A stretch of DNA of 64,000 bases from Nitrospirota bacterium. Its GTDB lineage: Bacteria; Nitrospirota; Thermodesulfovibrionia; Thermodesulfovibrionales; Dissulfurispiraceae. How positions within the stretch are numbered: the first letter of the stretch is position 1; each line of letters starts with the position of its first letter. This document shows positions 30,335-58,667 of the stretch, piece by piece. The notes under the pieces were generated by a model. That model did no database searches. It worked only from the letters and a program-made list of their open reading frames with translations, and was not told the DNA's origin. A program made the translations under genes and the position numbers. The stretch is taken from assembly GCA_040758355.1 (NCBI GenBank), contig JBFLWF010000011.1, positions 1 through 64,000 on the forward strand, read 5' to 3'.

Positions 30335-30336
30335 GA

Positions 30337-34181: not shown

Positions 34182-34985
34182 TTATGGCAAAATCGCCGTA
34201 GCGCTTTGGCCAGGGCGTATTATAGTCATTGGATCAAAGCTGAATTTAATATCCACCTCGTATAAAGGCTTGCTATTCCTCATACCCACTGGCTCAAGGC
34301 CAAGGCGACTGATTACGCCTTTATATTTTTTATCCGCAACCTTAACAAAAACTTTCTGGCCAATGGAGAGTGCCGATATCTCTTCATTAGTCATCTTAAT
34401 CCTTGCCAGCATATTTCCTGCTTCTGCAAGAACGAACAGCGTAGCGGGTTGCATTGTTGACACAATAGTCTGGCCGACTTCCACATGCCGCTGTAATACA
34501 ACACAATCAAAGGGGGCGCGCACCACACTATATTCTAAATTCAGTTCTGCCTTCGTCAGAGCCGCCTGAGCAGCCTGATATTCAGAATTTACTGCAACAA
34601 ATCCAATTCGTGCCAGCTCCAGTTCGTGGTCTGCTATGAGGTCCCGTTCATGCATCTCCTTTGCCCTTTTTAATTCCTGCTCTGCCTCATTGCGTTTCAC
34701 CTCCAGCCGTTTAACATCTGCACTTGTCTTTTCCACATGCGTTTTAAAAAGACGATCATCCAGCCGCAATAAAGGTTGTCCCTTGCGCACATGACCGCCT
34801 GCATTTACCACCACCTCTGATACAACTCCTGATACCGGCGTACTAAGCTCAACTCTCCGGGACCATTGCAGAGCAGCCTCTATATCTTTCGCCCATAATG
34901 TTGCAGGCAATATAAAGGCCAGTATAAAACAAACCAATACCGAACCTGCTATTTTATTCATTGCTGTCTCCTTATTACTTTTCAT
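34182..34985 (-). CDS. Short efflux periplasmic adaptor (MFP)
   Basis: PVSGVV..V.V..G..V.KGQ.L..LD, coiled hairpin, VRAPFD. Confidence 0.85.
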   Translation of the reverse strand: MKSNKETAMNKIAGSVLVCFILAFILPATLWAKDIEAALQWSRRVELSTPVSGVVSEVVVNAGGHVRKGQPLLRLDDRLFKTHVEKTSADVKRLEVKRNEAEQELKRAKEMHERDLIADHELELARIGFVAVNSEYQAAQAALTKAELNLEYSVVRAPFDCVVLQRHVEVGQTIVSTMQPATLFVLAEAGNMLARIKMTNEEISALSIGQKVFVKVADKKYKGVISRLGLEPVGMRNSKPLYEVDIKFSFDPMTIIRPGQSATAILP

Positions 34986-41790: not shown

Positions 41791-43128
41791 TTAAAGGAGC
41801 TTATATTTTACCATTCTTAATCTGAGCTGTCTCCTCGTAATCCCGAGGCGGGCTGCTGCCTTTGTCTGGTTCCAGTTCTCTGCCTCAAGGGTCTTTAAAA
41901 CTACTGCACGTTCGAGTTCATCGAGTTTGAGGCCTGACAGGTCGGCTATACCTTTTGAGACGGCATTTCCTGAACCTTTATTGATGATCTTATTCGGAAG
42001 GTCATCGAGGGCAATGGTCTCCTGTTTGGTCAATACAATTGCCCTCTCTATAATATTCTCGAGCTCCCTTATATTCCCTGGCCAGTCATAACTCAAAAGT
42101 GCGTCCATTGCCATCTGATCAATCCCCTTTATGAATTTCTGGTTCTCAAGGGCATATTTTTTTATAAAGTGGTCAGCGAGCAAGGGAATGTCCTCTTTTC
42201 GTTCCCTCAAAGGAGGCATATGTATGGATATTACATTAAGGCGGTAGTAAAGGTCCTCCCTGAACCCTCCTGTCTCGATCTCCTTTTCGAGATTTCTGTT
42301 TGTTGCTGCAATTATCCTGCAATCGGCTTTTATCGGCTTGTTCCCCCCTACCCTGTAGAATTCTTTTTCCTGTATAAACCTCAGTAGTTTCACCTGCATG
42401 GATAAGGGCATCTCTCCTATCTCATCAAGAAAAAGTGTACCTCTGTTAACCATTTCTACCTTGCCCGCCTCTTTTGACACTGCACCGGTATATGCACCTG
42501 CCTCGTGTCCGAAAAGTTCATTCTCGATGAGATCCTTGGGTATTGCAGCACAGTTTATTGCCACGAAGGGGAATTCCCTTCTCTGTGATGCGCTATGAAC
42601 GGCCTTTGCCACAAGCTCCTTGCCTGTCCCTGACTCTCCTGTTATGAGTATATTTGCACGGCTGCTGCTGACAACATCAATGGTAGATAAAACATCCTGA
42701 ATTGCCCTGCTGTTGCCGATTATACCGTATTGTTCCTGTTGATACACTGCTTGACTTTTTACCGATACATGGCTGTGAATCAATGCATGTTTGATTATGG
42801 CAAGCATCTCGTCATGCTCTATGGGCTTTGTGAGATAATTGGCAGCGCCTATCTTCATTGCCTCCACTGCATTTTCTATGCTGCCATAGGCTGTGATCAC
42901 TATGACAGGGAGTTCGGGATCCTTCTCCTTTACATGCCTTAAAAGGTCAAGCCCTGACCTGCCTGGAAGCCTCATATCCGTAATGACCAGATCATAGGGG
43001 TCAGCAAGTCTTGAAACGGCTTCCTCGTAACTCCTTGCTGTCTCAACATGAAAACCTTCCTGCTTCAGAAATTTATTGAGCACAAGGAGTATATTTCTCT
43101 CATCGTCCACTACCAGTATTCTTTCCAT
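41791..43128 (-). CDS. Sigma54-dependent response regulator (NtrC family)
   Basis: Receiver, GESGTGKE, ELFGHEAGAYTGA, FLDEIGE, WPGNIREL, HTH. Confidence 0.95.
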   Translation of the reverse strand: MERILVVDDERNILLVLNKFLKQEGFHVETARSYEEAVSRLADPYDLVITDMRLPGRSGLDLLRHVKEKDPELPVIVITAYGSIENAVEAMKIGAANYLTKPIEHDEMLAIIKHALIHSHVSVKSQAVYQQEQYGIIGNSRAIQDVLSTIDVVSSSRANILITGESGTGKELVAKAVHSASQRREFPFVAINCAAIPKDLIENELFGHEAGAYTGAVSKEAGKVEMVNRGTLFLDEIGEMPLSMQVKLLRFIQEKEFYRVGGNKPIKADCRIIAATNRNLEKEIETGGFREDLYYRLNVISIHMPPLRERKEDIPLLADHFIKKYALENQKFIKGIDQMAMDALLSYDWPGNIRELENIIERAIVLTKQETIALDDLPNKIINKGSGNAVSKGIADLSGLKLDELERAVVLKTLEAENWNQTKAAARLGITRRQLRLRMVKYKLL

Positions 43129-43144
43129 GGCTATCCTGCCGAGG

Positions 43145-43171
43145 CGTAAGGGGGACTTCGTCCCCCTTACG
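43145..43171. repeat. Perfect intergenic hairpin (REP-like)
   Basis: CGTAAGGGGGAC-TTC-GTCCCCCTTACG. Confidence 0.55.
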
Positions 43172-43179
43172 AAAACCCC

Positions 43180-44685
43180 CTATTTTGTTCCTGTCACCCC
43201 CTCCATAGTTAAAGATTCTAATTTAAGCTCGCCTGTGTCCACGATATGTCTATCTCCCATCGGGAGTTTTATAACAAAGTGCGCTCCCTTTCCGGATGGA
43301 AGCAATTTTATATCACCATGATGGGCTAATATTATCTTATAAACAGTGGCAAGGCCGAGGCCGGTGCCGTCAGCCCTTGTTGTAAAGAATGGTTGGAAGA
43401 TCTTCTGGGCGATTTCCTTCGGCACGCCGGGACCCGTGTCCTTTACATAAATCTCCAGCCACTCATCCGATACCTTATATTCCACTGTTATGGCCCCATC
43501 CTTTTTCATTGCCTGGATTGCGTTCATAAGGAGGTTTATAAACACCTGCTTCAGGAGGGTGGGATCACCCGTAACCCTTGGAATTTTGTCCCCCTCCTTT
43601 TTAATCACTCTAACATTAGACTCTTCGAGATCAGGCTCGAGCAAATCAATAACCCTGTCTACAACATCGCCCACATCACAATGCACAAAGGCGGGCGAAG
43701 GCATCTTTGCAAACCTGAAAAATTCATCAGCCATCATGGTCATTCCGATGGTTTCGTCTTTGATAATAGCTATATACTCACGCACTTCTGCTATATCGCC
43801 GGATCGCTCGATTCCCGATATCGCGCCACGAATGGAATACAGGCTGTTCCTTAATTCATGGGCTATCTGTGCTGACATTTCTCCTACTGTTGCCATACAT
43901 GTAAGCATCTCCCTTTCCTCCGACATCCTCTTGAATTCAGATAGATGCCTCTTGAGATTCTCTATCATATTATAAAAGGCGTGCCTCAACTGGACTGTCT
44001 CATCCCTGTCCGACGGATCATACAGTTTGATATGCCTTAACCCAATCTCTTTTTCAAATGCCTCTATCTCCTTTGAAAGAGATGTTATTGGCCGCGTCAT
44101 TATCATTGAAACAATAAATGAACCGCCGATGCCGACAGCAAATATGATCAATGAAAGATACATGAGCTGAATTATTGTCTTTTTGAATTCCTTATTGAGA
44201 GCTGCATCTTCAGCCTCGAGGTCAAAGTCAATCTCAAGGCCGCCAAGGATATCCCTTTCTATCTCGATAGGCAGAAATATCTGGCCTTCGGGGTTCTCAT
44301 TCCGCTTGCCATTGATAAAATCATCCAGCTTTTTCGATATGGCATCGTTCAGATGACCTAATCTTTTTAAGCTGTCGGAGGCTATGACTATTCCCTGTTT
44401 ATCTATAATATTTATGCCTTTTGCCTGGCCTGAAGATTTCAACTGCCGGATCTGCTCCATCAAAAAGCCAAAATCTTGTGATATCATGGCATCAGATGCA
44501 TTGATTGCCAGTTTTTCAGCAACGCTTTTGTGGAACTGCTGCCGCTGGATATTGAGATTCCTTTTGGATGAAGAAAGAACCACTATGCTCACAGAGACAT
44601 AGATTATCACTATCAACAGCATCACATAGAGGATGCCCTTGCTTTTTATGCTCGTCCGCTTATTTAGATCCTTCAAAGCCTTCAT
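43180..44685 (-). CDS. Membrane sensor histidine kinase
   Basis: 2 TM, Cache-like periplasmic domain, [12 protein letters not shown], HATPase. Confidence 0.9.
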
Positions 44686-44704
44686 ATTTACAATAAAATT
44701 CCGA

Positions 44705-46303
44705 TCATTCTTCCATTATCCTGAATGCCTTTATTCCTGTCTGTTTCTGCAGTTCCATGGTCTGCCTTTTAGAGTACTGGACGAGGTGTCTTTTTGCATT
44801 ATCTACAAACCTCCTGTCCATGTCCTTTCTTGCACTCAAGACCCATCCATGAAGGGGGGGAGTTTTAGCAAGTATCACGATGCGGCTCGTGTCTATATCA
44901 TCCTGCATGGACTTCAAAGACGATAGGCTCACAAACCCTGCATCAACCGAGCCTCTATAGACCTGCATAATTACATTCTCATAAGTCTTCAGCTCCACAA
45001 ACTTTATTCCATTCATTGGCACTCCGCTGGCAGTTAATAAATTCTTCTGAGAAATATAGCCTCCGTCTGAATGCAGGGATGTTATACCAATCCTCCTGTC
45101 AGCCAGATCTTTAATTGTCCTGATATTACTTACCGAGTGGGCAATAATCACTCCAACATTATCCTCGGAATTGCCTGCCTCGACAATGGCAGCAATCCCT
45201 TTTGCTCTGCCCGTCTTTTTCGTTTCCATGTATAGATGGTAATTCTGGAGGAAGATATCACCCTCCCCTTTATTCATTATTTTTATAAATGCCTCCGCAT
45301 TCTCGGGGATAATAAGCTGAAACTTACTTCCTGTCATCCTCGCAAGATACTCTATCAAGGGGTTTAGCTGTATAAAGACATCGGGACCAAAGGAGACAGG
45401 CTCTACAACGAACCTTTTACCGCCATGCTGTCTCAAGATTATGCCCTCCTTTTCTCCAGGGACGCTGCTCATCAAAACCCTCACTATGTCATAGTCGCTG
45501 TCCTTTGTCTCTGAAAAGCCATCAACTCCTGCTCCAATACTGCCGATGATATCCTTTTTGTTTTTCAGGCTGTTTACAGAAAGCATTGCATTTTTGAGAT
45601 CATGTATAAGGCCTTTGCCAATGGCTGCCCTTGCAACAAAGAGATACTGGGGAATGGAATAGGAATACTTCACTATTCTGAGACCGCTGTTCAAGTATGG
45701 TTTTGCTGTCATCTCAGGCACCCCGGTGGCATCGAACATCCGTGCCATTACAGCAGTCAGGGAACTCTCATCCGAACCTAACTTCACAACCTCGAGAAAA
45801 TCTTTATCAGAAATCCCTACCCTCTGAAGCATTATTTTTGGCAAAAGGCCTGAACCAGGGCATTTATATCTGCCATATGCAAGTGTCTTATCTAAGAGAT
45901 CAGCAGTCTTTTTAACAGAAGAATCATCACGAACAACCAGAACGCTTCTTTCCTCTGTAGAACCATTTATGCTGAGCTTTACAAGGGGCACAATTGATGT
46001 TTTGCTGTATGCCTCGCAGTAAATGGTTGGGCAGAGGAATGCTATATCCGCATCGCCCTTTTCAAGATGTTTAGGCATATCAGCCGTCTCCCTCGCCACC
46101 CTGATTTTGATGGATATGTTCAGCTTATCCTCAAGGTATCTCTTCAATGGAAGGAAATTTTTATACATGGTTGATGGGGACTGAAGGGGGATGAGCATCA
46201 TGGTTATCTGCTGTCTGGAGAAGGCAGGGGAACTGCAAAAGAGGATAAGGGCAGTTACCAAGATAATCCTTTTTAAAACAGTGGAATGGAAGAAAAACTT
46301 CAT
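44705..46303 (-). CDS. Tandem PhnD/phosphonate-binding-fold periplasmic protein
   Basis: Signal peptide; two similar halves (F.PL..YL, SGLLP/SDGGY, V....DA.., SDYD); no ABC permease nearby. Confidence 0.8.
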   Translation of the reverse strand: MKFFFHSTVLKRIILVTALILFCSSPAFSRQQITMMLIPLQSPSTMYKNFLPLKRYLEDKLNISIKIRVARETADMPKHLEKGDADIAFLCPTIYCEAYSKTSIVPLVKLSINGSTEERSVLVVRDDSSVKKTADLLDKTLAYGRYKCPGSGLLPKIMLQRVGISDKDFLEVVKLGSDESSLTAVMARMFDATGVPEMTAKPYLNSGLRIVKYSYSIPQYLFVARAAIGKGLIHDLKNAMLSVNSLKNKKDIIGSIGAGVDGFSETKDSDYDIVRVLMSSVPGEKEGIILRQHGGKRFVVEPVSFGPDVFIQLNPLIEYLARMTGSKFQLIIPENAEAFIKIMNKGEGDIFLQNYHLYMETKKTGRAKGIAAIVEAGNSEDNVGVIIAHSVSNIRTIKDLADRRIGITSLHSDGGYISQKNLLTASGVPMNGIKFVELKTYENVIMQVYRGSVDAGFVSLSSLKSMQDDIDTSRIVILAKTPPLHGWVLSARKDMDRRFVDNAKRHLVQYSKRQTMELQKQTGIKAFRIMEE

Positions 46304-46315
46304 ATTTAAATTATA

Positions 46316-46359
46316 TAAAAATGGTGTTCTGGATGTAAACAAATACATCCAGAACACCA
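46316..46359 (-). terminator. Intrinsic terminator after soxB
   Basis: TGGTGTTCTGGATGTA-loop-TACATCCAGAACACCA, then TTTTT on the minus strand. Confidence 0.8.
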
Positions 46360-46369
46360 AGGGGAGGGG

Positions 46370-48031
46370 TCAGATTACCATCTTTGGCCTTTCAGACTTT
46401 ATCTTTATGGTCTTCTTCTTCTTGATGTAATTGATGACAACATCATAAACCGGTGGGCCCGGCTGTTCTTCCATTGACGCCCATCCTGCCATTGTGTATT
46501 CCTTATCGGGATGGACATCTTTCCCGCGAACCTTCAAATCCTGTATCCTGTTACCCATCTTCTCATTCACCTTAATAACAAAACTCATGCCCGCTGTCCT
46601 GACCATATCTCCACCCTGCTGTTTATAAGGGTCGTGATGGAAGATGTTATCAGCTATGTCTTCCATCACCTCTTTCAGGAAGCTGCCTTTCATCTTTGTC
46701 TTGTATGTGTTTGCATAGGTGATGGCTGTCTGGGAATAAACATCGTCCGCTGTAATCGGGCCCGGAAGAATTGTCCTTCCCCACCTGAACCCGGCGGAAA
46801 GGGCAAACTCTGCATCATAATGGTCGATCATTGCCTCACAGATGAGGTCATCAAAGGTTCCGTCCAGATTGCCCCTGCGGTAAAGGATATCCTCTGTATG
46901 TCCCAATACCTCATCAAGCTTTGCCTTGTGGGGCTTTCTTATGTCCTCTACGAGCTTTGACATTTCAGGATCCGGGTCTATCATCTCGGACATCACGGGT
47001 ATGAGTCTGAAGGAGTAATCAACCATCCTTTTATTCTTCACTTCGATGTCCATCCTTGAGAGGAACTTCCCATAACAACCCGTGTTTACCACAAGGGTCT
47101 TGCCAACAACTATTGGCTTGGGTATTCCATCATGGGTATGTCCGCCAAAGATTACATCGATGCCCTTAACCCTGCTCGCCATCTTTTTGTCCACATCACA
47201 GCCATTATGGGAAAGAACGATAACAAGGTCAACATTCTTTGCCCTCACCTCATCCACGATCTTCTGCATGTTTTCGTCTTTGATCCCAAATGACCAATTT
47301 GGTATGAATCTCCTCGGATTGGCTATTGGCGTATAGGGAAATGCCTGGCCTATTACTGCAACAGCAAGACCATTGACTGTTTTTATCTCGTAGGGCTTGA
47401 ATATGGGGTCTCCCCATGTAGATTCGTGGACATTCTGGGCAACAAATGGGAAGTTCATCATCTTTATTAGCTCGAGAACGCGCTCCTCAGGATAGGTGAA
47501 TTCCCAGTGGCCAGTCATGACATCACAGCCAAAAAGATTCAGAACCCGCACCATGTCTTCTCCGCGGCTCCAGAGGCTCGTTGCAGATCCCTGAAGTGTA
47601 TCACCGCCATCTATACACAGCACCTTTCCGTGCCTTTCAGCCTTTACCCTTTTAATCATGGTGGCAATATGGGCCACACCACCCACCTTTCCGTACTTCT
47701 TTGCGAGGGCTGAGAAGTTGTCACTGGTGTACGCATAAGCCTCAAGGGTATCAGGCTTATAGCCATAATATTTCAGAAGCTCCCTACCGGTAAGGTGTGG
47801 CGGCTTGCCCTTATTTTCACCCACTCCTATATTTGTATCAGGCTCCCTGTAATACATGGGGACAAGCTGTGCATGTATGTCTGTGGTGTGTAATATCGTG
47901 ATATTCCCCTTTGCATCAAATTTGAACAGATTTTCCGGCCTTAAACTCTTTGCGAGGGCTGCCGGTGATACAGCAGCGGTTCCTGCAGTGAGTGCTGCCA
48001 TCCAGAGAAATTCTCTTCGTGTAATAGCCAT
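46370..48031 (-). CDS. soxB: Thiosulfohydrolase SoxB
   Basis: Tat TRREFL; HTTDIHAQL.P.YYREP, DGGDT.QGS, GHWEFTY, GQAFPY.PIANP, LSHNG, GGHTHD, GFRWG, QQGGDMVR. Confidence 0.96.
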   Translation of the reverse strand: MAITRREFLWMAALTAGTAAVSPAALAKSLRPENLFKFDAKGNITILHTTDIHAQLVPMYYREPDTNIGVGENKGKPPHLTGRELLKYYGYKPDTLEAYAYTSDNFSALAKKYGKVGGVAHIATMIKRVKAERHGKVLCIDGGDTLQGSATSLWSRGEDMVRVLNLFGCDVMTGHWEFTYPEERVLELIKMMNFPFVAQNVHESTWGDPIFKPYEIKTVNGLAVAVIGQAFPYTPIANPRRFIPNWSFGIKDENMQKIVDEVRAKNVDLVIVLSHNGCDVDKKMASRVKGIDVIFGGHTHDGIPKPIVVGKTLVVNTGCYGKFLSRMDIEVKNKRMVDYSFRLIPVMSEMIDPDPEMSKLVEDIRKPHKAKLDEVLGHTEDILYRRGNLDGTFDDLICEAMIDHYDAEFALSAGFRWGRTILPGPITADDVYSQTAITYANTYKTKMKGSFLKEVMEDIADNIFHHDPYKQQGGDMVRTAGMSFVIKVNEKMGNRIQDLKVRGKDVHPDKEYTMAGWASMEEQPGPPVYDVVINYIKKKKTIKIKSERPKMVI

Positions 48032-48040
48032 TTTCTCCTC

Positions 48041-48754
48041 CTATGAATGAACCTTTGCTCCCATGCAAATTTGATCTTCTGCGTCATCTTCACTATCTTC
48101 AAATTTAAAATTCGTGACTTTTTGAGGCGATACATCGAGGTATCTGCATTCCGCATTAATCCAGCATCTCAGAAACTGGCTGATGGAACTGTAAAATAAA
48201 CTTCCCTCTGATTTTAGGGCATCTGAGAATGCATCGACCCATCTGCCAAGGTGGTCCTGTAAGAATTTCCTCTCAACAGATATGCAGATCTCGACATTAT
48301 TGCCCTCACCTTTAGATGCTGCCTCTGCTTCCTTAAGTGTGACAAGGTGCATAAACTCAAGCTCTGCTGCTATATGGTCAGGCCTCTCATTTGTGAAATT
48401 CATTCCGAATGCCTTGTAAAACCCTGCAATGTCAGCCATTTCTTCTGTCGTATAAACAGACAGCCTGGACCTGTAGTACTCGTTCTCGTAAGGAGGACAT
48501 CCGCTTTTAAGGGTCAAAAATCTAATGTGTTCATCCGCCATTTTATCCACATCAAAGGTTTCTGCCTCTTTAAGGTCTTTTAAAGACGCCTCTATCTCTG
48601 TCTTTAAGGGATATCTTTCAATCGCCTCCTTTATCTCGTTTACGAATTCACCGCTCCTTAAAAATCCTCCAAACTCTTCATCCGGATAAAAAAAGCAGTA
48701 ACTGAGAAGCCTGTACGTCTTTGACCTTTGAAAGGCTACATTTGCATTGCTCAT
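48041..48754 (-). CDS. TorD/NarJ-like chaperone for the NXR-like enzyme
   Basis: CPPYENEY, MADIAGFYKAFG, ERPDHIAAELEFM, FLQDHLGRW. Confidence 0.9.
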   Translation of the reverse strand: MSNANVAFQRSKTYRLLSYCFFYPDEEFGGFLRSGEFVNEIKEAIERYPLKTEIEASLKDLKEAETFDVDKMADEHIRFLTLKSGCPPYENEYYRSRLSVYTTEEMADIAGFYKAFGMNFTNERPDHIAAELEFMHLVTLKEAEAASKGEGNNVEICISVERKFLQDHLGRWVDAFSDALKSEGSLFYSSISQFLRCWINAECRYLDVSPQKVTNFKFEDSEDDAEDQICMGAKVHS

Positions 48755-48786
48755 TTTTTACTCCTTCTGTTTTTTATCTGCATCCT

Positions 48787-49920
48787 CTATGTTATGTTGT
48801 GGCGGTATACCTGGAGTTTTTTGTCATAAAAAGGTCTGATATACGCAGGCTCTTTTATAGGCACCTTCACAATCTCTTTGCCCTTGACATCGTAACCAGA
48901 GGCACTGCCCTTTGAGACCTTGAACTTCGCAGGCCAGAAATCAGTGGAACCAAATAGCATCAGCACGCCGAGTAATGTCTCATCGGTGTGTGCATTCCTA
49001 TAAGTCTTGATCGCATCTTCAACTCCAGGCCCGAACGTCTGCCTCAAGAAGGGAGGAGGCACATGGATGGGCGGGATGTAGTATATATTGGGCTCCGTCC
49101 CAAACTGCGGGAAAAGCGGTAATGCCACCTTTTTGATATGGACAAGGTAGTCAATAGGGTTTGATGGATCAGCCTTTTCAGGGGTATGTATCCAGCCGTT
49201 CAGCCTCGTTCTGCCTATGCATGTCCTCATACACTGTGTCTGTTCCCCTTGTTCAACAAGCGGGTAACAACCTATACATTTTTCCGATTTCCTCGTTGTA
49301 CTATTGAAAAAAACCTTTTTATATGGGCATGCTCGGACACAGTCCCTGTACCCCTTACACCTCTTCTGGTCGACAAGGACAATGCCATCCTCGGCACGTT
49401 TATATATCGCCTTCCTCGAACAGGCAGAAATACAGGCAGGGTATGTACAGTGGTTACACATCCTTGGCAGATAGAAATGCCATACCCTGTGGGGCATTGT
49501 TATGTAATCGCCCCCATCTATCGAGCCGTGAGCGTCGTCTTCGCCTATATTTGGATGCGCCCAATCCATCTCCTCAGGCCAATAACCCTGCGTGACCTGT
49601 CCCTTTGGGGCTGCCTCGAATATGGTTTTGCCTTTATAGACATTCCCTTCCCACTTCTGAGGCCCGAGGAGTCCGAGTATCTTCACATCCCATCCAAGTG
49701 GATAAAAACCATACGGCTTTGACTCCACATTGTTCCAGAACATGTACTCCTGACCCTCTCCTGTTGTCCATGTATGTTTGCATGCCATAGTACAAGTCTG
49801 ACAGGCTATGCATTTGTTGATGTCAAAGACCGCTGCAAACTGTTTTTCGGGCCTCACACCCTCATAGGGGTAAAACATTTCTCTTTGAATCTGCCAGTTC
49901 TTGACTTTAATCTCAGCCAT
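48787..49920 (-). CDS. NxrB/NarH-like Fe-S beta subunit
   Basis: NWQI.R.M.YPY, CIACQTCTMAC, MFWNNVESKP, CNHCTYPAC, CKGYRDCVRACPYKK, CIGC..CMRTC, PLFPQFGTEPN. Confidence 0.92.
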   Translation of the reverse strand: MAEIKVKNWQIQREMFYPYEGVRPEKQFAAVFDINKCIACQTCTMACKHTWTTGEGQEYMFWNNVESKPYGFYPLGWDVKILGLLGPQKWEGNVYKGKTIFEAAPKGQVTQGYWPEEMDWAHPNIGEDDAHGSIDGGDYITMPHRVWHFYLPRMCNHCTYPACISACSRKAIYKRAEDGIVLVDQKRCKGYRDCVRACPYKKVFFNSTTRKSEKCIGCYPLVEQGEQTQCMRTCIGRTRLNGWIHTPEKADPSNPIDYLVHIKKVALPLFPQFGTEPNIYYIPPIHVPPPFLRQTFGPGVEDAIKTYRNAHTDETLLGVLMLFGSTDFWPAKFKVSKGSASGYDVKGKEIVKVPIKEPAYIRPFYDKKLQVYRHNIT

Positions 49921-49947
49921 TATATCCTCCAAGATTTTGCATTCCTA

Positions 49948-52900
49948 TTAAACGATAAAACCGCCGTTCAGGTATTTCTTCATGTCATCATTTTCATAAG
50001 TAGGTCTGTAGCCTAATGATGCAGGCCTCCAGAGACCCTTGCCTCCAATTCCACCATCTTCAGCCTTTGCCACCTTGACATATGCCTCCCTCGGTGCCCC
50101 AACAGGACAGTGGATGTCTGGCGCAAACCCCTTTCCAACTAACTGCCCAAAGGTCTCCTTCCTTATAAGGGTATCTGTCATCAATGTAGGACCGAGCCAT
50201 GCCCTTGTGCAACTCTGGTGGCCGCCATAGCGGAACATGGATTGATATGTTGTCTCGGGGTTTTTTGCGAGTTTGTCAGGATTGGCCTCGTGAGCAGCGA
50301 CAGACCCATGGCTTGACTGATACATATTGAACCACATGAGCAGCACCCCCCTCGGTATCCCCGGATAATACCTTGCACGGCACATCATGCGGCTCACTTT
50401 ATAATCCTCATCGGTCTTCTTCCATCCTCTATAAGGCCTATCTTCAGGGTCGGCATCTATCCAGACGTAATCGCCATCATTGATGCCAAGCTCCTTGGCA
50501 TCCTTTGGATTTATATTCACATATGCCTCGCCCACCCATGGCATCCTCTTGTCAGATCTCTTCAGATCTCCAAAAGGCCCGAAGAATACGGATACGACAT
50601 CGATGTCAACGGGTGTTGTGTGGGCACCGTGCCTGTATTTTGGCGTGATGAACTGGAATTTTAGACCATCCTTTTCCCCCGGATGCTTCGTCTTCTTGAG
50701 ATCCTTCCATGACTTTACAATGTTTCTTACCTGCCTGACCTCGACAGAGAGATCGTCCCTCTTTAGACCATATGCCTCTGGAGGGGTTGGCTTAAGGGTA
50801 TCTAATGGCTTGCTCACAACCACATTGGGTTCATAAAATGTCGCATCTATGGGCTCACGATAAACAGGGAGGTTCTCGCCATGCTCGATAAACTCTGGCT
50901 CTTCCCTGTAGAATTCAAGCCTTCCTGTCTTTGTATACCAGGGCTTGCTTTCATGATACTGTTCCCATCCAGGTACCTTCGGATATGTCCTGAAAAGGGT
51001 AAGCACCGGTATGCCGTCCTTTGCCCTCTTTTCCATTTCCTCTATCTTGTATCCCTTGAGTGTTGTGCTTTCGTTTATTATCCTCTGGAGATAGACCTCC
51101 ACCTTTTTGTCATGAACGAACTTCCAGTAATCCTCGAACCTCTTATCTCCTGTGAGTTTTGCCAGTTTCTTTGCAACACCTGCATAGGTCTCGATATCGC
51201 TTACAGTATCATGTATCCTCTTAAGCGGGGTCCTTGGATATATATGAACAAAGGGATTTGTGACCGATGCAGTCATATCGGGGTATTTGAACTCTGCCCA
51301 TGAATCAACGCCATATACAACGTCGGCATATTCGCATGAAAGGGTCCACCACCATTCATTGACGATTATACCCTCCATCTTTGGAAGTGTATTATGTATC
51401 AAGTCATAGAACCACTTTGCATTTCCGAGAAGGGAGTTGCTGTTGGCAAACCAGAGGAGCTTTGTGGGTGTTGGTGTATGTGTCTTCCCTGTAAAGAGTT
51501 TATTCCCAATCCTGAGCGGCCTGTCGCCGTAATTGTAATAGTGGGCTGATTCAAATTTGAAATAATATTTCAGTTTTGGAGCCTTTTCAGACGAAAGCTC
51601 GGGATTGAACGGGTCCTCCATGACGTACTGGGGCGTACCATTGAATATGGCAATCCTGTAATTCCCTGCATAACTTCCAGGGCTTCCGCCGAGATTGCCA
51701 ATATTTTTGGTCATTGCAGCCACAAGGAATATCCCCCTGTCTTTAAGCCCTGCATTGAAGAACTGATTTGGCCCCATGCCAACAGCAAAGAGCGTTTTGC
51801 CTTTGTTCTTCGCTATCTGCTCTGCGAGGTTTATGATGGCCTCCTTTGGAGCGCCTGTTATTTCCGAGACGTTCTCCGGTGTAAACTCCTCAAGATATTC
51901 TTTGATAACATCAAGTACAGTCCTCACCTCGATCTCTTTGCCATCAATACCCTTGACCTTAAACCTTCCCGTAAGGGCAATATCTTTCCGCAACCCTCTA
52001 AACTTCTTCCCCACATGGTCCCTTGTGATAACTGCCGGCGTCTTGGCCTTTTTATCCCAGACCACAAAGTCGCCCCATTCATTCCTCATTGTTTCGGGTA
52101 TATACTGCTCTTTATGCACAGGCATGGGCGGAGGCGTTTCACCTTCCTTTAAGACTTTTACATAATTATTTAGCGGGGAAGGAGTATAACTACTGATTAT
52201 GTCAGATGCCCTTAAATACTGCAGGTTGTCGCTCCTGAGTAAAACGGGCAGGTCTGTGTATTCCTTGAGATAGCCGGGATCATAGAGGTTTTTCTTTATG
52301 AGCAAATGCGCAACGCCGAGGGCAAGTGCCTGGTCTGTGCCCGGCCTGATGACTACGACCTCATCGGACTTATTGGCAGTAGATTGATACTCTATCGTTA
52401 TATTTATGACCTTTGAACCTTTCAGCCTTGCCTCTGTGAGCCAGTGGGCATCGGGCATCTTTGTGGATATCCAGTTCAACCCCCAGATGGTAATGAGGTT
52501 AGCCTGTTCAGTAGCATGGAGCTCAAAGTCAACAGTCTGCTGTCCGGTAACCATTGGATGACCTGGAGGAAGGTCTGTATGCCAACTGTAGTTATCCCAG
52601 TAACGGCCGCCGATTGCCTTCTCATGGTTGGTTTTCCTTATATGGTTGTCGAGGAGGGCGAGCATATTGGAAAACCTTCCCAATCCAGCAACCCTCGTTA
52701 TCCCGAGGAAATGCATGCCCCCCCTGTGTTTGAGGGTCAATGTCCCCGCGCCCTTCATCCACTCTATCATTGATGGGTCATAGCCCTGCGCCTTCAGATA
52801 CTTTGCACCCTGTTCGCCACTGTAAGTCTGTGCAATATTCATATAGGCCTTTGCCGCTATCTCATTCACTTCGTCGTGAGATAACTTAAGCCATTTATCC

Positions 52901-53391
52901 TTCCCCCTCTGGAAGTACTTTTCTGGCGGCCTTCCTGTCTCCGGATCCCTCGGGAAATCGGCCTTGACCCATTCGTAAAAACCCTTTCTGACCATGGCGC
53001 CCTTGACCCTCCTGTCTCCGTAGAACTTCCTCACGAGGGCGAGCCCCTTCTGGCAGCATCTGGGCTCCCATCTGTGGGAAGGCCTGTTGCCGTACACATC
53101 CGTTGCCTTTCCATAACCATAGGTGGGCATAATCCTGACAACAACGCCGTTTCTTACATAAGCCCTTAAAAGGCAGTTGTGAGTATCATTGGGCGCACAT
53201 GTAAAGACAAATGTGTCATCGTATTTGAATTTATCCCTGTACAGTTTTTCCCAGTCCCTGTGTGGGTATCCACCGAGGGGGTTGTCAGTATCTACCGGCT
53301 GTAGAAATGCAAGCCTTGGCGAACTGACAGCTAATCCAGCCGCACCTGCAAGAGACCATTTCAGAAAATCCCTTCTGCTAAATCCTTTCAC
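49948..53391 (-). CDS. Periplasmic type II Mo-bisPGD alpha subunit, Nitrospira/anammox NXR-related (NXR/pNAR-like)
   Basis: Tat SRRDFLK; FS0 motif C-x3-D-x3-C-x39-C (CAPNDTHNC...PRCCQKG); Asp-ligand region [19 protein letters not shown]. Confidence 0.9.
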
Positions 53392-53418
53392 ACGATCCTC
53401 CTCATAATCGATGCCTTT

Positions 53419-54252
53419 TTAAAACCTGAAACCAGGAACCTGGATTGGAAGCCCGTTGGCCTGATATGTTAAATAGAACTCAAGGTTGCGAATGTCCTCG
53501 CTCTCGTATTCCGGCAGCTTTTCCACCCTCATGTTCCCAATACAATCTTTAATGATCCTTCTCTGAATGGTGCCCGTAGAACCCCATGCCATCCTGTAAG
53601 TTGGCCAGTGGTCTGCATGGCCTCTATTTCTCGAAAGAATATTGGCCCTTGTCTTACGGCCTGCATACTTTATATGACATTGGGCGCAATTCCAGCTCCA
53701 CTCCCCCCACTTCGTATAGTACATCTTCTTTCCGGCCTCGTAGAATGGCTTCGCAGGGCCGTCTATGTTTATCTTGATCGGCATACCGTTGGAAAGGGAC
53801 TTCACAAACAATTCAACTGCAACTATATCGGGGGTGTCATACTTCCAGGGCTTGGCACCCATCTGTCCTTCACGGCACCTGTTGATCTGTACCGGAAGGG
53901 TGAGTATGCCTTTAATGCTTGCATCGTATTTTGGATAGGTGGTTGCAGCACCTTTAAGCTTTTCCCCATTCTGTCCGTGGCAACTGGCACATGACTTCCC
54001 TTTGCTTCCATCAGCCTTCTGGAATAGGGCATTTCCATCGTCAAGCAATATCTCGGCCGGATTGCCCTCTTCTGCCATCTTCTTTGTAGCCTCACCGTAA
54101 AACTCATTGTATCTCTTCTCATACTCTTCAGGCGAGATCTCAGGAGTATATTCCACAATCTCTCCAGCAGTAGAGTCTTGCAATGTTACAACAGGTATAA
54201 CACCCACCAGAGATAACAGCAATATCAGACCACCTAAAACTCTTTTATTCAT
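53419..54252 (-). CDS. soxA: Diheme SoxA
   Basis: NPAE, GKSCASCH, YPKYD, INRCR, CAQCH, WPTYR..WG, QRR...C...R, NLEFYL...NG......PG.R. Confidence 0.93.
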   Translation of the reverse strand: MNKRVLGGLILLLSLVGVIPVVTLQDSTAGEIVEYTPEISPEEYEKRYNEFYGEATKKMAEEGNPAEILLDDGNALFQKADGSKGKSCASCHGQNGEKLKGAATTYPKYDASIKGILTLPVQINRCREGQMGAKPWKYDTPDIVAVELFVKSLSNGMPIKINIDGPAKPFYEAGKKMYYTKWGEWSWNCAQCHIKYAGRKTRANILSRNRGHADHWPTYRMAWGSTGTIQRRIIKDCIGNMRVEKLPEYESEDIRNLEFYLTYQANGLPIQVPGFRF

Positions 54253-54273
54253 TTTCCACCTCTCCTTATACCA

Positions 54274-54603
54274 TTATTGCGGATTAACCTGGACAGTATC
54301 TTCATAAGTACCACCCTTGTTGTCCTTGTATACTATCTTAAGGGGTGCGGCCTTATCAGCCTTAACATAAAAGGTTATAAATGGGTCCGCACTGACAGCC
54401 GTTGTCCACTCCATGCTGCTTATGAGATCGTTTCCATAATAAACTTTTACATCGTTAATGTAGTGAGCTGGGATCGGCTTTCCTGCCTTATCCTTCCTCA
54501 ACCCTGTTTCCATTGGGTGCATTACCAACGCCTTTACAGAGACCACTTCATCTTTTTTTATGGTCTGTGGCAACTTTATCCTTATTTTCCCGACTTCTGC
54601 CAT
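54274..54603 (-). CDS. soxZ: Sulfur carrier SoxZ
   Basis: HPMETGLRKD, IPAHYI, VSADPF, DNKG. Confidence 0.96.
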   Translation of the reverse strand: MAEVGKIRIKLPQTIKKDEVVSVKALVMHPMETGLRKDKAGKPIPAHYINDVKVYYGNDLISSMEWTTAVSADPFITFYVKADKAAPLKIVYKDNKGGTYEDTVQVNPQ

Positions 54604-54652
54604 TGTATTTTCCTCCTTTTGAAATTTAAAGTTTAGAATTCTTTAAAACAGG

Positions 54653-55147
54653 CTATCCACCGCAGCCGCCGATGGTGACCTTAACCGGCTTGGACCCCTG
54701 ATAAAGCTTACCTGTATTGGTCTCAACCACGGCACGGACATCGGAGGTCTGCCTCATCTTGATCCTCAGTGCAAGTTCTGCCTTGCCATTGGCAGGAGTA
54801 AGTTCCATACTTGCTGTAAAGGGCCTCAGGTTCCCCTCGGCAAAAACATAGATTTTCTTAACATAATTGTCAGGTGTCATTGGAAGATCCGAAGTGACCG
54901 TTATCGGGACAACAGCTCCATTCTCTGCAATTATAGGCACCTTTAGATCCACATGTCCTGTCTCTATCTTACGGTCTCCAAAGAACTTCTTCAACACATC
55001 CTTGATGTCCTCCTTTTCCTCTGCTGCCAGTGCAGGTTTAAGAAGGCCCGGCACAGTGCCTGCCATAAAAAAGGCTGCACATGCAACACCCGTTGCCTTA
55101 ATAAACTCTCTCCTCGAAAGTCCAGTACTTTCCTTTGAGTCTTTCAT
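54653..55147 (-). CDS. soxY: Sulfur carrier SoxY
   Basis: Tat SRREFIK, IAENGAVVP, RIKM, C-terminal KVTIGGCGG. Confidence 0.97.
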   Translation of the reverse strand: MKDSKESTGLSRREFIKATGVACAAFFMAGTVPGLLKPALAAEEKEDIKDVLKKFFGDRKIETGHVDLKVPIIAENGAVVPITVTSDLPMTPDNYVKKIYVFAEGNLRPFTASMELTPANGKAELALRIKMRQTSDVRAVVETNTGKLYQGSKPVKVTIGGCGG

Positions 55148-55163
55148 ACATTCCTCCTGTCTT

Positions 55164-55601
55164 TTATTTCTCTTTTAGCGTGTATAGATATTCGACGATA
55201 TCATCAATTCGCTGTTCGATCAGCTTCTTTTTCTGATCCTCGGGCAGATTCTCTTCTCCCTTGAAAATCAGGAGCTTGCTGGCCCCATAAGACGGCATAA
55301 AGGGGTCTGCTTTGGTTTTCTTCGCATCGTATATCCACTGCCTTAATTTCTCCCTATCTTTCGGTGTATCGGCATAGTCTTCCATAATTTCAGCAAAGTC
55401 CGGGGAAATGTCACTGGGAAACTCGATACCTTTAAAGTAATGACATGCCACACAGTTAGCAACCGGTCTGCCGTGAAAAAGCTTTTTACCATTCTTTGCA
55501 TCCCCTGCCCTAACAGCTATCGGGAAAGCAACAAATACAGAGAGTAACATCACGACCGCAATCATAGTGCCGAACCTTGACCACACCTTGCTTTTTTGCA
55601 T
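55164..55601 (-). CDS. soxX: SoxX-like monoheme cytochrome c
   Basis: GD..NGK.LF...ANCVACH, LRQWIYD, MP.YG, IDDIVEYL.TL; immediately upstream of soxY. Confidence 0.8.
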   Translation of the reverse strand: MQKSKVWSRFGTMIAVVMLLSVFVAFPIAVRAGDAKNGKKLFHGRPVANCVACHYFKGIEFPSDISPDFAEIMEDYADTPKDREKLRQWIYDAKKTKADPFMPSYGASKLLIFKGEENLPEDQKKKLIEQRIDDIVEYLYTLKEK

Positions 55602-55627
55602 ACAAAATCCTCCTTTTATCATTCTCA

Positions 55628-56125
55628 TCATTCAACCTTTATGTAGGCAAAGCCTTCATCCTGAAGCTCTACAACCCTTACCTGACCCGAATCCGTGAGT
55701 TTGCAGAATGGCTTGAGTTTGGTCTTGTCTATCTTCATTCTCTTCAGGGTTATATCGCACTGCTCAACTTTCACTCCGTAGCCGTCCACAAGGCTTGCAA
55801 GCATCTCATCTATTGATTTTTGCAGCTTTTCGTCTATCTGCTTTTCTGCGAAATTTGTCCCTGACTTATCCTTCAGCAGAAACTGCACGCATGCCCCGTT
55901 GGCAACTACCCTTACATCATAAGAAACATTTTTGGTTGTGTAGTAATTGACGAGATTGTAGACATTGCGCAGCATGCCGTCAAACCTCTTGGCATCTCCA
56001 AAGTCGCAGTGATAAACAGCCTTTCTCTCTTTTTCTTTGTCAGATGCTTTGCCTATGGATGGCATTAAAAGAACCGCCATGGCAAGACCTAAGATCGAGA
56101 TTTTTAGAAAACTTCCCCATTTCAT
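55628..56125 (-). CDS. Exported DsrE-like protein
   Basis: Signal peptide; KAVYH, VVANG, YGVKVEQC..T, SG...VVELQ..GFAYIK. Confidence 0.8.
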   Translation of the reverse strand: MKWGSFLKISILGLAMAVLLMPSIGKASDKEKERKAVYHCDFGDAKRFDGMLRNVYNLVNYYTTKNVSYDVRVVANGACVQFLLKDKSGTNFAEKQIDEKLQKSIDEMLASLVDGYGVKVEQCDITLKRMKIDKTKLKPFCKLTDSGQVRVVELQDEGFAYIKVE

Positions 56126-56174
56126 ATTCTCCCCCTTCCGCCCCGAAGCATTCAGGGCAACTTTTTGGAATTTA

Positions 56175-56564
56175 CTAACACCCTTTATTTCTTATCCCAT
56201 CTACATAATTACAGAGCAGGTCCTTAAAGTCCTCCTTCGTTACAGCACCCGGAACCCTTAATAACTCCTCACCATTGGCATTTAAAAATATAACTGTTGG
56301 GGTGCCTATTATCCTGTACTTTTTTGCAAGGTCTTTTTCAGGCATGCCCATTTTGCGCATCTTTCTTCCCCCATGAACATCTACCCTTATAATATCTGCA
56401 TTTCTCAGAAGGATACTTTTTATCGACGAGTCATTCATAATACTATCCATGCGCTCACACCACCTGCACCCTTCCTCATAAAAATACAACACCTTGATAT
56501 CGGATGCTGCTGCGACAGATGAAAGCAAGAAAAAAACTGAAACTATAAGTATTAGCTGTTTCAT
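56175..56564 (-). CDS. Periplasmic thioredoxin (SoxW/SoxS-like)
   Basis: Signal peptide, GCRWC, GTPT, RVPG. Confidence 0.85.
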   Translation of the reverse strand: MKQLILIVSVFFLLSSVAAASDIKVLYFYEEGCRWCERMDSIMNDSSIKSILLRNADIIRVDVHGGRKMRKMGMPEKDLAKKYRIIGTPTVIFLNANGEELLRVPGAVTKEDFKDLLCNYVDGIRNKGC

Positions 56565-56579
56565 TACACTTTATAGTTT

Positions 56580-56595
56580 AGCAAGATATGTGCCA
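56580..56595 (-). promoter_or_regulatory. Sigma54 promoter heading the sox gene run
   Basis: TGGCACATATCTTGCT, consensus match. Confidence 0.88.
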
Positions 56596-56626
56596 TTATT
56601 TTTCCTTTATATTTATCAGGATACCC

Positions 56627-56674
56627 TGTCCTTTCCGGTACAGTTCCAAACCATCCAATGTTCAATTCTGAACA
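56627..56674. promoter_or_regulatory. Pair of enhancer (UAS) sites
   Basis: TGTCC-TTTCCG-GTACA (56627) and TGTTC-AATTCT-GAACA (56659). Confidence 0.72.
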
Positions 56675-56700
56675 TAAACGGCGAAGCCGTCTTGCCTCCT

Positions 56701-56775
56701 AAAAAAATTTGCGGCCATCCATTAAAGAATGGCCGCCAGCACGGGTGTTTCTATAATAATGGAGGGTTTATGCAT
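56701..56775 (-). ncRNA. Candidate sigma54-dependent small RNA (or leaderless 17-aa peptide)
   Basis: Bounded by a sigma54 promoter and the terminator GCGGCCATTC-TTTAAT-GGATGGCCGC-AAATTTTTTT; contains ACCCTCC. Confidence 0.55.
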
Positions 56776-56785
56776 CTTAAACTTT

Positions 56786-56801
56786 AGCAAATTTTTTGCC
56801 A
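56786..56801 (-). promoter_or_regulatory. Sigma54 promoter of the small transcript
   Basis: TGGCAAAAAATTTGCT (GG-N10-GC). Confidence 0.75.
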
Positions 56802-56854
56802 GACTAATTAACCTTATAATTTCAAATAATAATATGATTTCAAGGCAGGATATC

Positions 56855-56902
56855 TGTTCAATAAAGTACAGATCAAAACCCAATTATGTCCAAAAATGAA
56901 CA
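56855..56902. promoter_or_regulatory. Pair of enhancer (UAS) sites
   Basis: TGTTC-AATAAA-GTACA (56855) and TGTCC-AAAAAT-GAACA (56887). Confidence 0.72.
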
Positions 56903-56982
56903 TATGGGCACAAACTGCGGCGGGCATGCAAGTTCTGTCTCCAGTGCTGACCCGTAAGAAAATTTTTATCCTGTCAGGCCTT

Positions 56983-58044
56983 TTAGTCTGGATTTTCGGT
57001 ACTGGATGACTCATCAAGGTCTATTATCTTTTTTCCTTTTACATAATCCTTGGTCTTGTAATCTGTTATGGTTAACATCTTCCTGATAATGTTGTTCATC
57101 CGGTCACACTGGTTGTTGATAATGCTCATCTCTTCCTCTGTTAGCGGTTCTTGATGCTCAAACTTCTCTTTAAACAGACCTATAAGGTTATGGACAATTG
57201 TCATTGGCTGTCTCATCTCATGGGCTGTTGCCCCTGCCAGCTCGATGATGGCCGCAAGCTTTTCCCTCTCTATGTCCTTTTCTATGGCGGAACTGAGTCT
57301 TTTAGATACTATAACTGTTATCGCGGCAACAAAAACAATGCTGAGCAAACCTATAGCCAATAAGGAGATAATAGTTTTACGGAGTTCTGCTGAACGTATG
57401 TAATCATACCTTTCCATAGGGATGCTTATACTGATGCCGCCCTTGATATCTCCATAACTATATCCGTGTTTTGCATGGCACTTGAGACATGGTTCCTCTA
57501 TTTTGAGAGGCGCAATGTATTTAAAGACCCTGCTGCCGTCTTGTTCCGATATTGCCGCAGTTTCCGCAATTGCACCCTTCTCAAACTCTTTAAGCGCATT
57601 CCTTTCCCATGCATCAGGAATATTATATGGATTCACGGGCTTGAGGCTTATAATACGGAATTTATAACCCTGTCGCTGCATTGTTATTTCTGATAGCTGC
57701 CTCGTCATGTATGCCGGATTAATCTTCGTATAGCGTCTGCCGTCAACCGAAACAATATCACGGCGGGGGTCTTCCAGATATGGATTTGGCGGGGTATCTG
57801 GCGAGATCTCCACATAAACACCTCCGTGCTGTGCATTCCAGAGGCGGGCAACCATTATCTGGTCAAAGAACGCCCCTGCAGTCTCTTTCAATTCATTTAT
57901 CTGTTCTTTTTTTCTTTCGCTTTGCACCCACAGTACCAATGAAAAAAAGAGGATGCTCAGTATAATCACAAAGGGGACTAAAAACGTTACAGTCAGCCTA
58001 CAAGGACTTTCCGGTTTGTTTATTTCTGAAAAGAACTTTCTCAC
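56983..58044 (-). CDS. Tll0287/DUF3365 heme c sensor with HisKA-like tail and no ATPase domain
   Basis: WNAQHGGVYV, NPAYMTRQ, CLKCH, TM, AGATAHEMRQP, ends YVKGKKIIDL. Confidence 0.8.
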   Translation of the reverse strand: MRKFFSEINKPESPCRLTVTFLVPFVIILSILFFSLVLWVQSERKKEQINELKETAGAFFDQIMVARLWNAQHGGVYVEISPDTPPNPYLEDPRRDIVSVDGRRYTKINPAYMTRQLSEITMQRQGYKFRIISLKPVNPYNIPDAWERNALKEFEKGAIAETAAISEQDGSRVFKYIAPLKIEEPCLKCHAKHGYSYGDIKGGISISIPMERYDYIRSAELRKTIISLLAIGLLSIVFVAAITVIVSKRLSSAIEKDIEREKLAAIIELAGATAHEMRQPMTIVHNLIGLFKEKFEHQEPLTEEEMSIINNQCDRMNNIIRKMLTITDYKTKDYVKGKKIIDLDESSSTENPD

Positions 58045-58150
58045 CCTTAAATTTTACATATATCGCCGCCATTCACACAAGGTAAAAAAATTGTAAATTC
58101 ATGACCTTATATATTCGAAGGATACAACTTGTCCTCCATACAAAAAAATC

Positions 58151-58197
58151 TTGACAAAAAGAAATGCCTTCCTTTACTATTGAGAATAAATCTCAAT
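58151..58197 (+). promoter_or_regulatory. Sigma70 promoter with overlapping Fur-like operator
   Basis: TTGACA-N18-TACTAT; palindrome ATTGAGA-ATAAA-TCTCAAT at 58179-58197; upstream of feo genes. Confidence 0.7.
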
Positions 58198-58211
58198 TTG
58201 GAGGAGAAAAA

Positions 58212-58667
58212 ATGAAAACAGTGTTCACATCAGTTGTTTTAGTCTCGATCCTGACATGCATCTCGCTGTCATGGTCCGAGGAGATAACGTACAGAAAGCA
58301 CATCAAACCTTTATTCGATGCCAAATGCATAGGATGCCACGGACAGGATGCTGCTCCTGAGTATTATGCATTTAAAGAAGAGAAAGACATGTGGCTTTCA
58401 AAAGGAAAGGGAATGAGGATGGATACTTACAGCCATCTCGTCTTTTACACTGCATGGCCTGATACGGGAGCATTGATGCGCAGGCTCGATGACGGCAAGG
58501 GATCAAAGGAAGGCAAGCCGGGCAATATGTATCAGCATTTAGGCTCAACAGAGGAAGAGAGGCAGCAGAACCTTAAACTCTTTAAGGATTGGGTCGGAGG
58601 CTGGACATTAAAGAGGTGGAAGGATATTACAAAAGAGGATATGGACGGGATAAAGGCAAAGTATTAA
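58212..58667 (+). CDS. Monoheme cytochrome c
   Basis: Signal peptide, CIGCH, GALMRRLDDG, GNMY. Confidence 0.8.
   Translation: MKTVFTSVVLVSILTCISLSWSEEITYRKHIKPLFDAKCIGCHGQDAAPEYYAFKEEKDMWLSKGKGMRMDTYSHLVFYTAWPDTGALMRRLDDGKGSKEGKPGNMYQHLGSTEEERQQNLKLFKDWVGGWTLKRWKDITKEDMDGIKAKY

Follow-up and report, generated by a model that had tools for sequence, protein, structure and literature searches.

The DNA stretch analysed here, referred to as the window, comprises 64,000 nt of the forward strand of contig JBFLWF010000011.1 from the genome of a subsurface sulfur bacterium of the Nitrospirota (GCA_040758355.1, hereafter G000; 2.77 Mb, 99% complete), other contigs of which are cited as C4, C7, C10 and C17. 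Its minus strand carries a sulfur oxidation (Sox) operon in which a cassette of three genes, coding for the alpha and beta subunits of a type II enzyme of the dimethyl sulfoxide (DMSO) reductase family and for a TorD/NarJ-type chaperone, lies between soxA and soxB. Open reading frames (ORFs) and profile searches gave the order trx-dsrE-soxX-soxY-soxZ-soxA-alpha-beta-torD-soxB (Table 1), as an earlier note on this DNA had described, and the short gaps mentioned there were borne out by measurement: 27 nt for soxA-alpha, 27 nt for alpha-beta (assuming the beta ATG at 49920; 15 nt with an upstream TTG start), 32 nt for beta-torD and 9 nt for torD-soxB. All five components of a truncated Sox system (SoxX, SoxA, SoxB, SoxY with its GGCGG arm, and SoxZ) are present in this one cluster, four of them above their profile cut-offs. 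SoxX scored 52.2 against an NCBIfam cut-off of 61, and its assignment is backed by synteny and by the match of the SoxX family profile to a solved SoxX (2c1d_B, E value of 9e-16).

The cassette genes have their own ribosome-binding sites and are located 5' of the only strong terminator of the operon, a 16-bp hairpin after soxB (z score of -7.8, with equal stability in 0 of 200 shuffles). Inside the operon we detected only terminator-like matches of 5 to 6 bp, the three junction windows folded were no more stable than their shuffles, and an Rfam search of the window gave no match. The terminator and the lack of an internal one had been anticipated in the earlier note; its single sigma54 promoter has to be replaced by two consensus sites, both shared with G001, a genome of the same genus. 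Probably a single transcript read from a sigma54 promoter includes the cassette, and the sigma54-dependent regulator encoded downstream is its probable activator.

To assess the assembly, the junctions were compared in four of 12 matching sequencing runs. Misassembly is excluded, and the architecture is real and common to strains, because a single contig of run X2, from another study, extends over positions 43000 to 58260 and spans both junctions (244 differing letters, ca. 98% identity) and a contig of run X5 bridges the soxA-alpha junction. A contig of run X3 at torD-soxB has fewer than 31 letters on one side and hence was not counted as a bridge. No indel was listed in the alpha, beta and torD ORFs in the four runs. 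The idea that a share near 0.45 in some runs denotes strains devoid of the cassette did not hold, as no joint skips positions 48044 to 53416 and pieces from within the cassette occur in runs X3, X5 and X7. In run X5, an alpha-beta piece (window positions 49283 to 51632) differed at 74 of 2,350 letters, compared to 6 of 1,983 in the sox part, and continued into unlike sequence at 49283, which could be chimeric or come from another copy elsewhere.

Table 1. Features of the sox operon and its flanks, with positions in the window
Feature	Position	Strand	Evidence and remarks
Distal sigma54 (-24/-12) consensus site, putative	56787..56801	-	Regex match; also in G001
Proximal sigma54 (-24/-12) consensus site, putative	56581..56595	-	16 nt upstream of trx; counterpart 5' of trx in G001 and G314
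Periplasmic thioredoxin-like protein (trx)	56175..56564	-	PF13098, E 1.8e-15; also in G001 and G314
DsrE/F-like protein, signal peptide	55628..56125	-	PF02635, E 8.6e-11
SoxX monohaem cytochrome c, diverged	55164..55631	-	TIGR04485, E 7e-14, below cut-off
SoxY, GGCGG arm, Tat signal	54653..55147	-	TIGR04488, above cut-off
SoxZ	54274..54603	-	TIGR04490, above cut-off
SoxA dihaem cytochrome	53419..54252	-	TIGR04484, above cut-off; 1h31_A, E 1.6e-39
Gained cassette alpha-beta-TorD, 5.4 kb	48044..53416	-	BLASTN against G001
Alpha subunit, type II DMSO-reductase family	49948..53391	-	7b04_B, E 3.5e-285; Tat signal, FS0 3Cys/Asp, Asp273, Thr310, Met539, Lys918
Beta subunit, four Fe-S clusters	48787..49920	-	7b04_A, E 3.9e-118; Pro168Ser beside Cys167
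TorD/NarJ-type chaperone (torD)	48041..48754	-	PF02613, E 5.5e-17; occupies the place of gamma 3' of beta in the closest relatives
SoxB thiosulfohydrolase	46370..48031	-	TIGR04486, 826 bits (cut-off 550)
Intrinsic terminator-like hairpin and T run	46322..46359	-	3' of soxB
Solute-binding protein, histidine kinase, sigma54-dependent regulator	41791..46360	-	Downstream of the operon; beside sox in relatives too

Gain of the cassette in one lineage

The same operon is found without the cassette in G001 (99% complete), at 79 to 86% DNA identity. There, soxA is located 24 nt ahead of soxB, and the BLASTN match to the window ends at 48043 and restarts at 53417. SoxA is present in 21 of the 317 genomes of the order, with soxB directly after soxA in 20 of them, and all eight SoxA loci outside the order keep this adjacency. 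Conversely, sox genes were found in none of the 45 locus rows around alpha homologs. The cassette is, therefore, a lineage-specific gain, found in one species only. Its three ORFs fill it entirely, with no transposase or integrase among them and no terminal flanking repeats, so that it does not fit a mobile element or a recent island. The GC content at third codon positions is 0.54 in alpha and beta, similar to soxA and soxB (0.52 to 0.53), compared to 0.64 to 0.67 in the closest relative.

The closest donor-type clusters code, in this order, for a radical S-adenosylmethionine protein, a bd-like protein, a pair of cytochromes c, TorD, alpha, beta and gamma. In comparison with them (L001/G029, L016 and L099), the proteins of the cassette are 83 to 84% (alpha), 80% (beta) and 56 to 61% (TorD) identical and the active-site motifs match, but only three genes were kept, in an order that is a circular permutation of the TorD-alpha-beta of the relatives. 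Gamma is encoded within the cluster for 39 of the 45 locus rows (some of them duplicates), and the six misses correspond to five contig-end cuts and one aberrant locus, L017. In the latter (L017:10001-14368), an alpha homolog (74%) of 1,455 amino acids diverges after residue 1043 and has no beta nearby, representing an assembly artefact or a fusion.

The haem-b gamma is absent from our operon, and a search of the whole genome retrieved only a protein with an EB_dh domain on C7, at 21 to 23% identity (profile E value of 2e-19); the bd-like membrane subunit was not found in the genome. This loss of two partners kept by the relatives had been overlooked in the earlier note. The C7 protein (G000:C7:79566-80492, L055:1378-2304), not found in four congeners, is soluble, encoded between Tll0287-like and chemotaxis-type genes, and lacks two features of the clade's gammas, a membrane anchor at the C terminus and a motif containing Lys; it might be a gamma acting in trans or a redox sensor. 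Two cytochromes c in a cluster on C4 match the cytochrome profile of the donor-type clusters (E value of ca. 1e-44). This cluster (G000:C4:29920-40098, L125) codes for a flavoprotein, a Rieske protein, cytochrome b, a hexahaem and two dihaem cytochromes directly 5' of a Tat-type NosZ and a NosR-like gene, i.e., a bc-like complex associated with the reduction of N2O.

Phylogenetic position and active site of the alpha subunit

The best solved match of alpha is NxrA of the Kuenenia nitrite oxidoreductase (NXR). The FS0 motif C65-x3-D69-x3-C73-x39-C113 and the twin-arginine translocation (Tat) signal are present as first described, although here they do not specifically mark the NXR lineage of Nitrospira and anammox bacteria, to which, along with related periplasmic nitrate reductases, they had been ascribed: alpha sits in a separate clade, with 40 to 42% identity to canonical-type NxrA of the phylum (four rows in the tree, assigned by their Asn/Glu signature) and a split supported at 100/100. 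It groups with relatives of 83 to 84% identity (L001, L099 and L122) and, in a broader circle of mixed hosts, with records of Acetothermia/Bipolaricaulota, Fraserbacteria and the Magnetominusculus type. Judged by its sequence, alpha is not a canonical NXR and falls in a sister group of periplasmic nitrate reductases and NXRs. Sister position and mixed hosts fit the Nitrotoga/Hydrogenobacter type, an assignment made by clade position only because the tree holds no reference sequence of either genus.

Among the characterised members of that clade, the Hydrogenobacter enzyme reduces nitrate, while that of Nitrotoga oxidises nitrite, according to the available part of PMC6050957. The Nitrotoga NXR and the Hydrogenobacter thermophilus nitrate reductase (NAR), as far as described there, share with our cassette the Tat-exported alpha, the signal-less beta, the TorD-type chaperone and the 3Cys/Asp FS0. 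In contrast, the cassette has no gamma, bd-like or cytochrome c partners, its Mo-site pattern ends in QT rather than QM, and it is embedded in sox. Compared to NXR-ABC of Kuenenia stuttgartiensis (7B04; accessible text of PMC8387239 and PMC12300631), Asn68/Asp69, Asp273 and Lys918 of alpha correspond to Asn70/Asp71, Asp275 and Lys917, whereas Asn312 and Glu527, which lie close to the Mo site and are found also in canonical Nitrospirales NXR, are replaced by Thr310 and Met539, and there is no C subunit. The Mo site (Y-4x-D-11x-QT) and Thr310 match NarG.

Alpha, beta and the chaperone are all present, all cofactor ligands are kept, and seven active-site or cofactor motif windows of alpha match those of the 83 to 84% relatives in sox-free clusters exactly or almost exactly. 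Neither alpha nor beta has a rate excess; the nonsynonymous divergence (dN) was ca. 0.1 in both (0.09 to 0.11 in alpha), with saturated synonymous divergence (dS), and the ratio in alpha was ca. 0.04 where computable. There is no sign of a new substrate.

Sulfur and nitrogen metabolism of the host

The claimed lack of soxCD holds for the whole genome, in which TIGR04555 (SoxC) had no match and PF00174 matched only a C-terminal fragment on C17. This remnant (G000:C17:35274-35384, L044) was considered as a lost SoxC and rejected, since only 37 profile positions match; we take its motif to be MsrP-like. SoxC was above the cut-off in none of the 24 SoxA-bearing genomes, and therefore the absence of soxCD is the ancestral state and the norm of the lineage, which needs no explanation and leaves nothing to replace. 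SoxCD is also reported as missing from sox-bearing or early-branching Nitrospirota (PMC11033732 and PMC13500833, in the parts available). The truncated Sox described in these same portions has the same five genes in the same order, without soxCD and with Dsr in the genome; here, however, a 5.4-kb cassette splits soxA and soxB, and Dsr comes with DsrD and with no DsrE above its cut-off, versus their rDsr with DsrEFH.

The sulfur genes of the host are those for DsrAB, a DsrD-like ORF, DsrC, DsrMK, AprA and a Sat-like ORF, and no DsrE above the TIGR03012 cut-off was found in the genome. Its nitrogen genes include a divergent NapA with NapGH, Nrf-like multihaem cytochromes, NosZ and a NorBC-like pair. 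Apart from the NorB-like protein, neither a haem-copper O2 reductase nor NirS was found. Motif scans for SQR, sHdr, NirK and QmoA used patterns too weak to show absence. The NapA (G000:C10:27735-35729, L123) has 1,111 amino acids and keeps the Cys-ligand motif; it is accompanied by NapG, NapH, a Nrf-like cytochrome with seven CxxCH and a monohaem protein, with no NapB seen, while G001 has instead a canonical NapA of 923 amino acids and a NapB-like dihaem gene. The NorC-like dihaem cytochrome and the NorB-like protein are encoded in the window (4526 to 6613), despite the lack of a NirS match in the genome. NapGH represents an electron input at the quinol level. Cytochrome-c-level electrons from Sox would thus have few sinks in this host, given the NorB-like protein as the only haem-copper candidate, the missing NirS and a NapA cluster with quinol-level NapGH.

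Possible role of the cassette

We favour, at about even confidence, the interpretation that the cassette is a nitrate reductase co-transcribed with Sox and acting as a sink for SoxAX electrons. An ancestral truncated soxXYZAB operon, never equipped with soxCD, would have gained a periplasmic nitrate-reductase core made of alpha, beta and chaperone. SoxAX would join thiosulfate to SoxY, freeing two electrons, and SoxB would release sulfate. The electrons would exit at the cytochrome c level via SoxX, directly or through a soluble cytochrome c, and would enter beta at its [3Fe-4S] end, the usual place of gamma, and the Mo-Asp273 site would reduce nitrate to nitrite. SoxX is at ca. +130 to +210 mV and the nitrate/nitrite couple at +0.42 V. 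The sulfane sulfur would proceed to Dsr/Apr/Sat and the nitrite to Nrf-type enzymes. The net periplasmic reaction is proton-neutral, and therefore the enzyme would work as an electron valve, allowing SoxAX to turn over in the absence of oxygen, rather than as a coupling site; the benefit would derive from oxidising the sulfane sulfur via Dsr/Apr/Sat. A periplasmic thiosulfate-to-nitrate electron module was one of two options in the earlier note and is the one that best fits the evidence, although we infer co-transcription, nitrate as the substrate, the direction and SoxAX as the electron source. Points in its favour are the clean integration ahead of the only strong terminator, the host-like GC content at third codon positions, the intact and constrained ORFs, the missing gamma and bd-like subunits, the NarG-like Mo site, the activities known from the clade, the few sinks for Sox electrons in this host, and the changes in SoxX and beta described below.

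A more specific version, which we consider doubtful, is that SoxAX stepped in for the lost gamma, with a remodelled SoxX docking on the [3Fe-4S] face of beta. Mature SoxX is only 66 to 68% identical to those of six relatives, themselves 89 to 99% alike (end branch of 0.34 versus a median of 0.068), with changes that include the loop ahead of the axial Met, and a protein search found no closer SoxX among 11 hits. The excess of changes over G001 was 36 versus 5 and 31 versus 2 in comparisons involving G001 and G314, values that are inflated because these two genomes are unusually alike in SoxX; we relied on the comparison with distant outgroups given below. In beta, Pro168, next to Cys167 and found in 51 of 51 homologs and in the solved NxrB, EbdB, NarH and PcrB, is replaced by Ser, retained in a strain variant. 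The adjoining Cys aligns with NarH Cys196, presumably a ligand of the [3Fe-4S] cluster (FS4) facing gamma. A prediction of the SoxA, SoxX and beta complex scored 0.00, with no controls folded alongside, and is evidence neither way; the AlphaFold model of beta (predicted local distance difference test value of 49.9) was not used. If such docking occurs, a single operon would code for a quinone-independent periplasmic thiosulfate:nitrate oxidoreductase, in which a type II DMSO-reductase enzyme is wired directly to a sulfur-oxidation cytochrome.

Several observations weigh against these interpretations. The alpha type is present in 27 of the 317 genomes of the order and occurs with SoxA only in G000, when ca. 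1.8 co-occurrences would be expected by chance (kin are not independent); among 401 genomes of the phylum, a set overlapping that of the order, an alpha homolog was found in 109 and SoxA in 13, both again only in G000. With the arrangement restricted to one species, there is no conservation backing the coupling of Sox and the enzyme. The host already has NapA, NosZ and the NorBC-like pair, and the C7 protein and the C4 cytochromes are alternative donors. As to SoxX, the excess over G001 with distant outgroups was only 14 versus 5 (chi-square of 4.3), the raised dS across soxX-soxY (1.3 to 1.6, versus 0.25 to 1.0 in the other genes) confounds the signal, SoxY too shows an excess (9 versus 0), and one family, f22, has fast SoxA and SoxX without a cassette. 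An approximately unbiased test did not reject a SoxX clade of G000 and G001 (P value of 0.15), and recombination may be the source of the divergence. The beta substitution is no more than suggestive of rewiring, since single changes about as rare occur at invariant columns in other relatives as well. Finally, the estimate of purifying selection covers a long branch and cannot be assigned to the period that followed the insertion. The earlier note had named unique synteny as a finding that would refute the coupling, and this is largely what we found; still, the clean, intact integration within the operon and the missing gamma argue for functional recruitment.

The same facts could be explained if the enzyme, as an active periplasmic nitrate reductase, were only a co-regulated passenger that uses the sox promoter and draws quinol-pool electrons via the C7 protein as a gamma in trans or the cytochromes of the C4 bc complex, with no special link to SoxAX. 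The candidate partners elsewhere in the genome, the lack of conserved linkage in other genomes and a SoxX divergence that may reflect recombination are all compatible with this, but the features of the C7 protein (low identity, chemotaxis-type neighbours, neither anchor nor Lys motif) and the loss of both gamma and the bd-like partner next to an intact alpha-beta make it somewhat unlikely. Reverse operation as a nitrite oxidase, for detoxification or energy, or an undecayed relic deprived of its partner, appears improbable. The missing gamma, the 16 residues besides the start at which a strain variant of alpha differs, and the nitrite-oxidising member of the sister clade in Nitrotoga (PMC6050957, available part) would agree with one or the other. 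On the other hand, no O2 reductase was found in the host to take electrons at +420 mV, the NXR-type Asn312 and Glu527 are absent, and intact ORFs, host-like codon usage and the whole operon in a strain from another study do not suggest decay.

The least probable explanation, and one that the evidence does not support, is the other option of the earlier note, in which a molybdenum bis(pyranopterin guanine dinucleotide) enzyme replaces SoxCD and oxidises SoxY-bound sulfane sulfur or free sulfite, passing the electrons to cytochromes. SoxCD oxidises the SoxY persulfide, bringing the yield to eight electrons, and sulfite oxidation by an enzyme with this cofactor exists in SoeA. The position between soxA and soxB, the lack of SoxC and a SoxY that departs more than that of G001 from the outgroup consensus (nine positions versus none) would be in line with it. 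However, a cassette-free soxXYZAB is found in 20 further genomes of the order, none of the 24 SoxA-bearing genomes has SoxC above the cut-off, and alpha has the domains PF00384/PF01568, not the single-molybdopterin fold (PF00174) of SoxCD and the sulfite oxidase family. Its motifs are unchanged from those of sox-free relatives, it shows no acceleration, and the host has Dsr/Apr/Sat. In addition, the homologous site in the Kuenenia NXR is reached only at the end of a narrow tunnel of 25 A (PMC8387239).

Coming back to the nitrate-reducing electron sink, the route from SoxAX to nitrate in anaerobic sulfur oxidisers is usually just an arrow in a diagram, and here the donor and a candidate acceptor are found in one operon, with the acceptor-free operon of G001 as a natural control. 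The cassette also adds a member without gamma to the Nar/NXR sister clade, itself poorly characterised, and the direction and partner of this member are testable. Genome annotation would label alpha NXR or NarG, missing both points. With the arrangement found in a single species, the finding carries limited weight. Both halves, the truncated Sox operon and the periplasmic nitrate-reductase core, are of known kinds; no description of their combination appeared in a literature search covering titles and abstract openings (few subscription papers, no supplements).

Other features of the window and related loci

Another periplasmic Mo enzyme is indicated at window positions 10310 to 15104 by TtrB-like, TtrA-like (581 bits, below cut-off) and NapH-like genes, with no TtrC. 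Multihaem cytochromes, an Fe-S protein, NrfD and a TorD-like chaperone are encoded at 28425 to 32649, with no catalytic Mo subunit adjoining. Inserted between aroB and aroK-like genes (20132 to 24415) there are two ORFs of 952 and 455 amino acids with no Pfam match at 1e-5, the shorter showing a motif that resembles a P-loop; the pair may be a split NTPase of the defence type. The gene of a histidine kinase is found between TolC-like and HlyD-like genes (34982 to 36574), downstream of the sox accessory cluster and within a gap of the G001 alignment. In G314, two tandem dsrE-like genes precede soxX on the 5' side (L131:15227-16470). G001 and G002 carry a shorter SoxB-like gene (L146 and L149; 482 amino acids, 34% to SoxB), which in L146 is located beside cytochrome and bd-like genes and a match to the sulfite-oxidase family.

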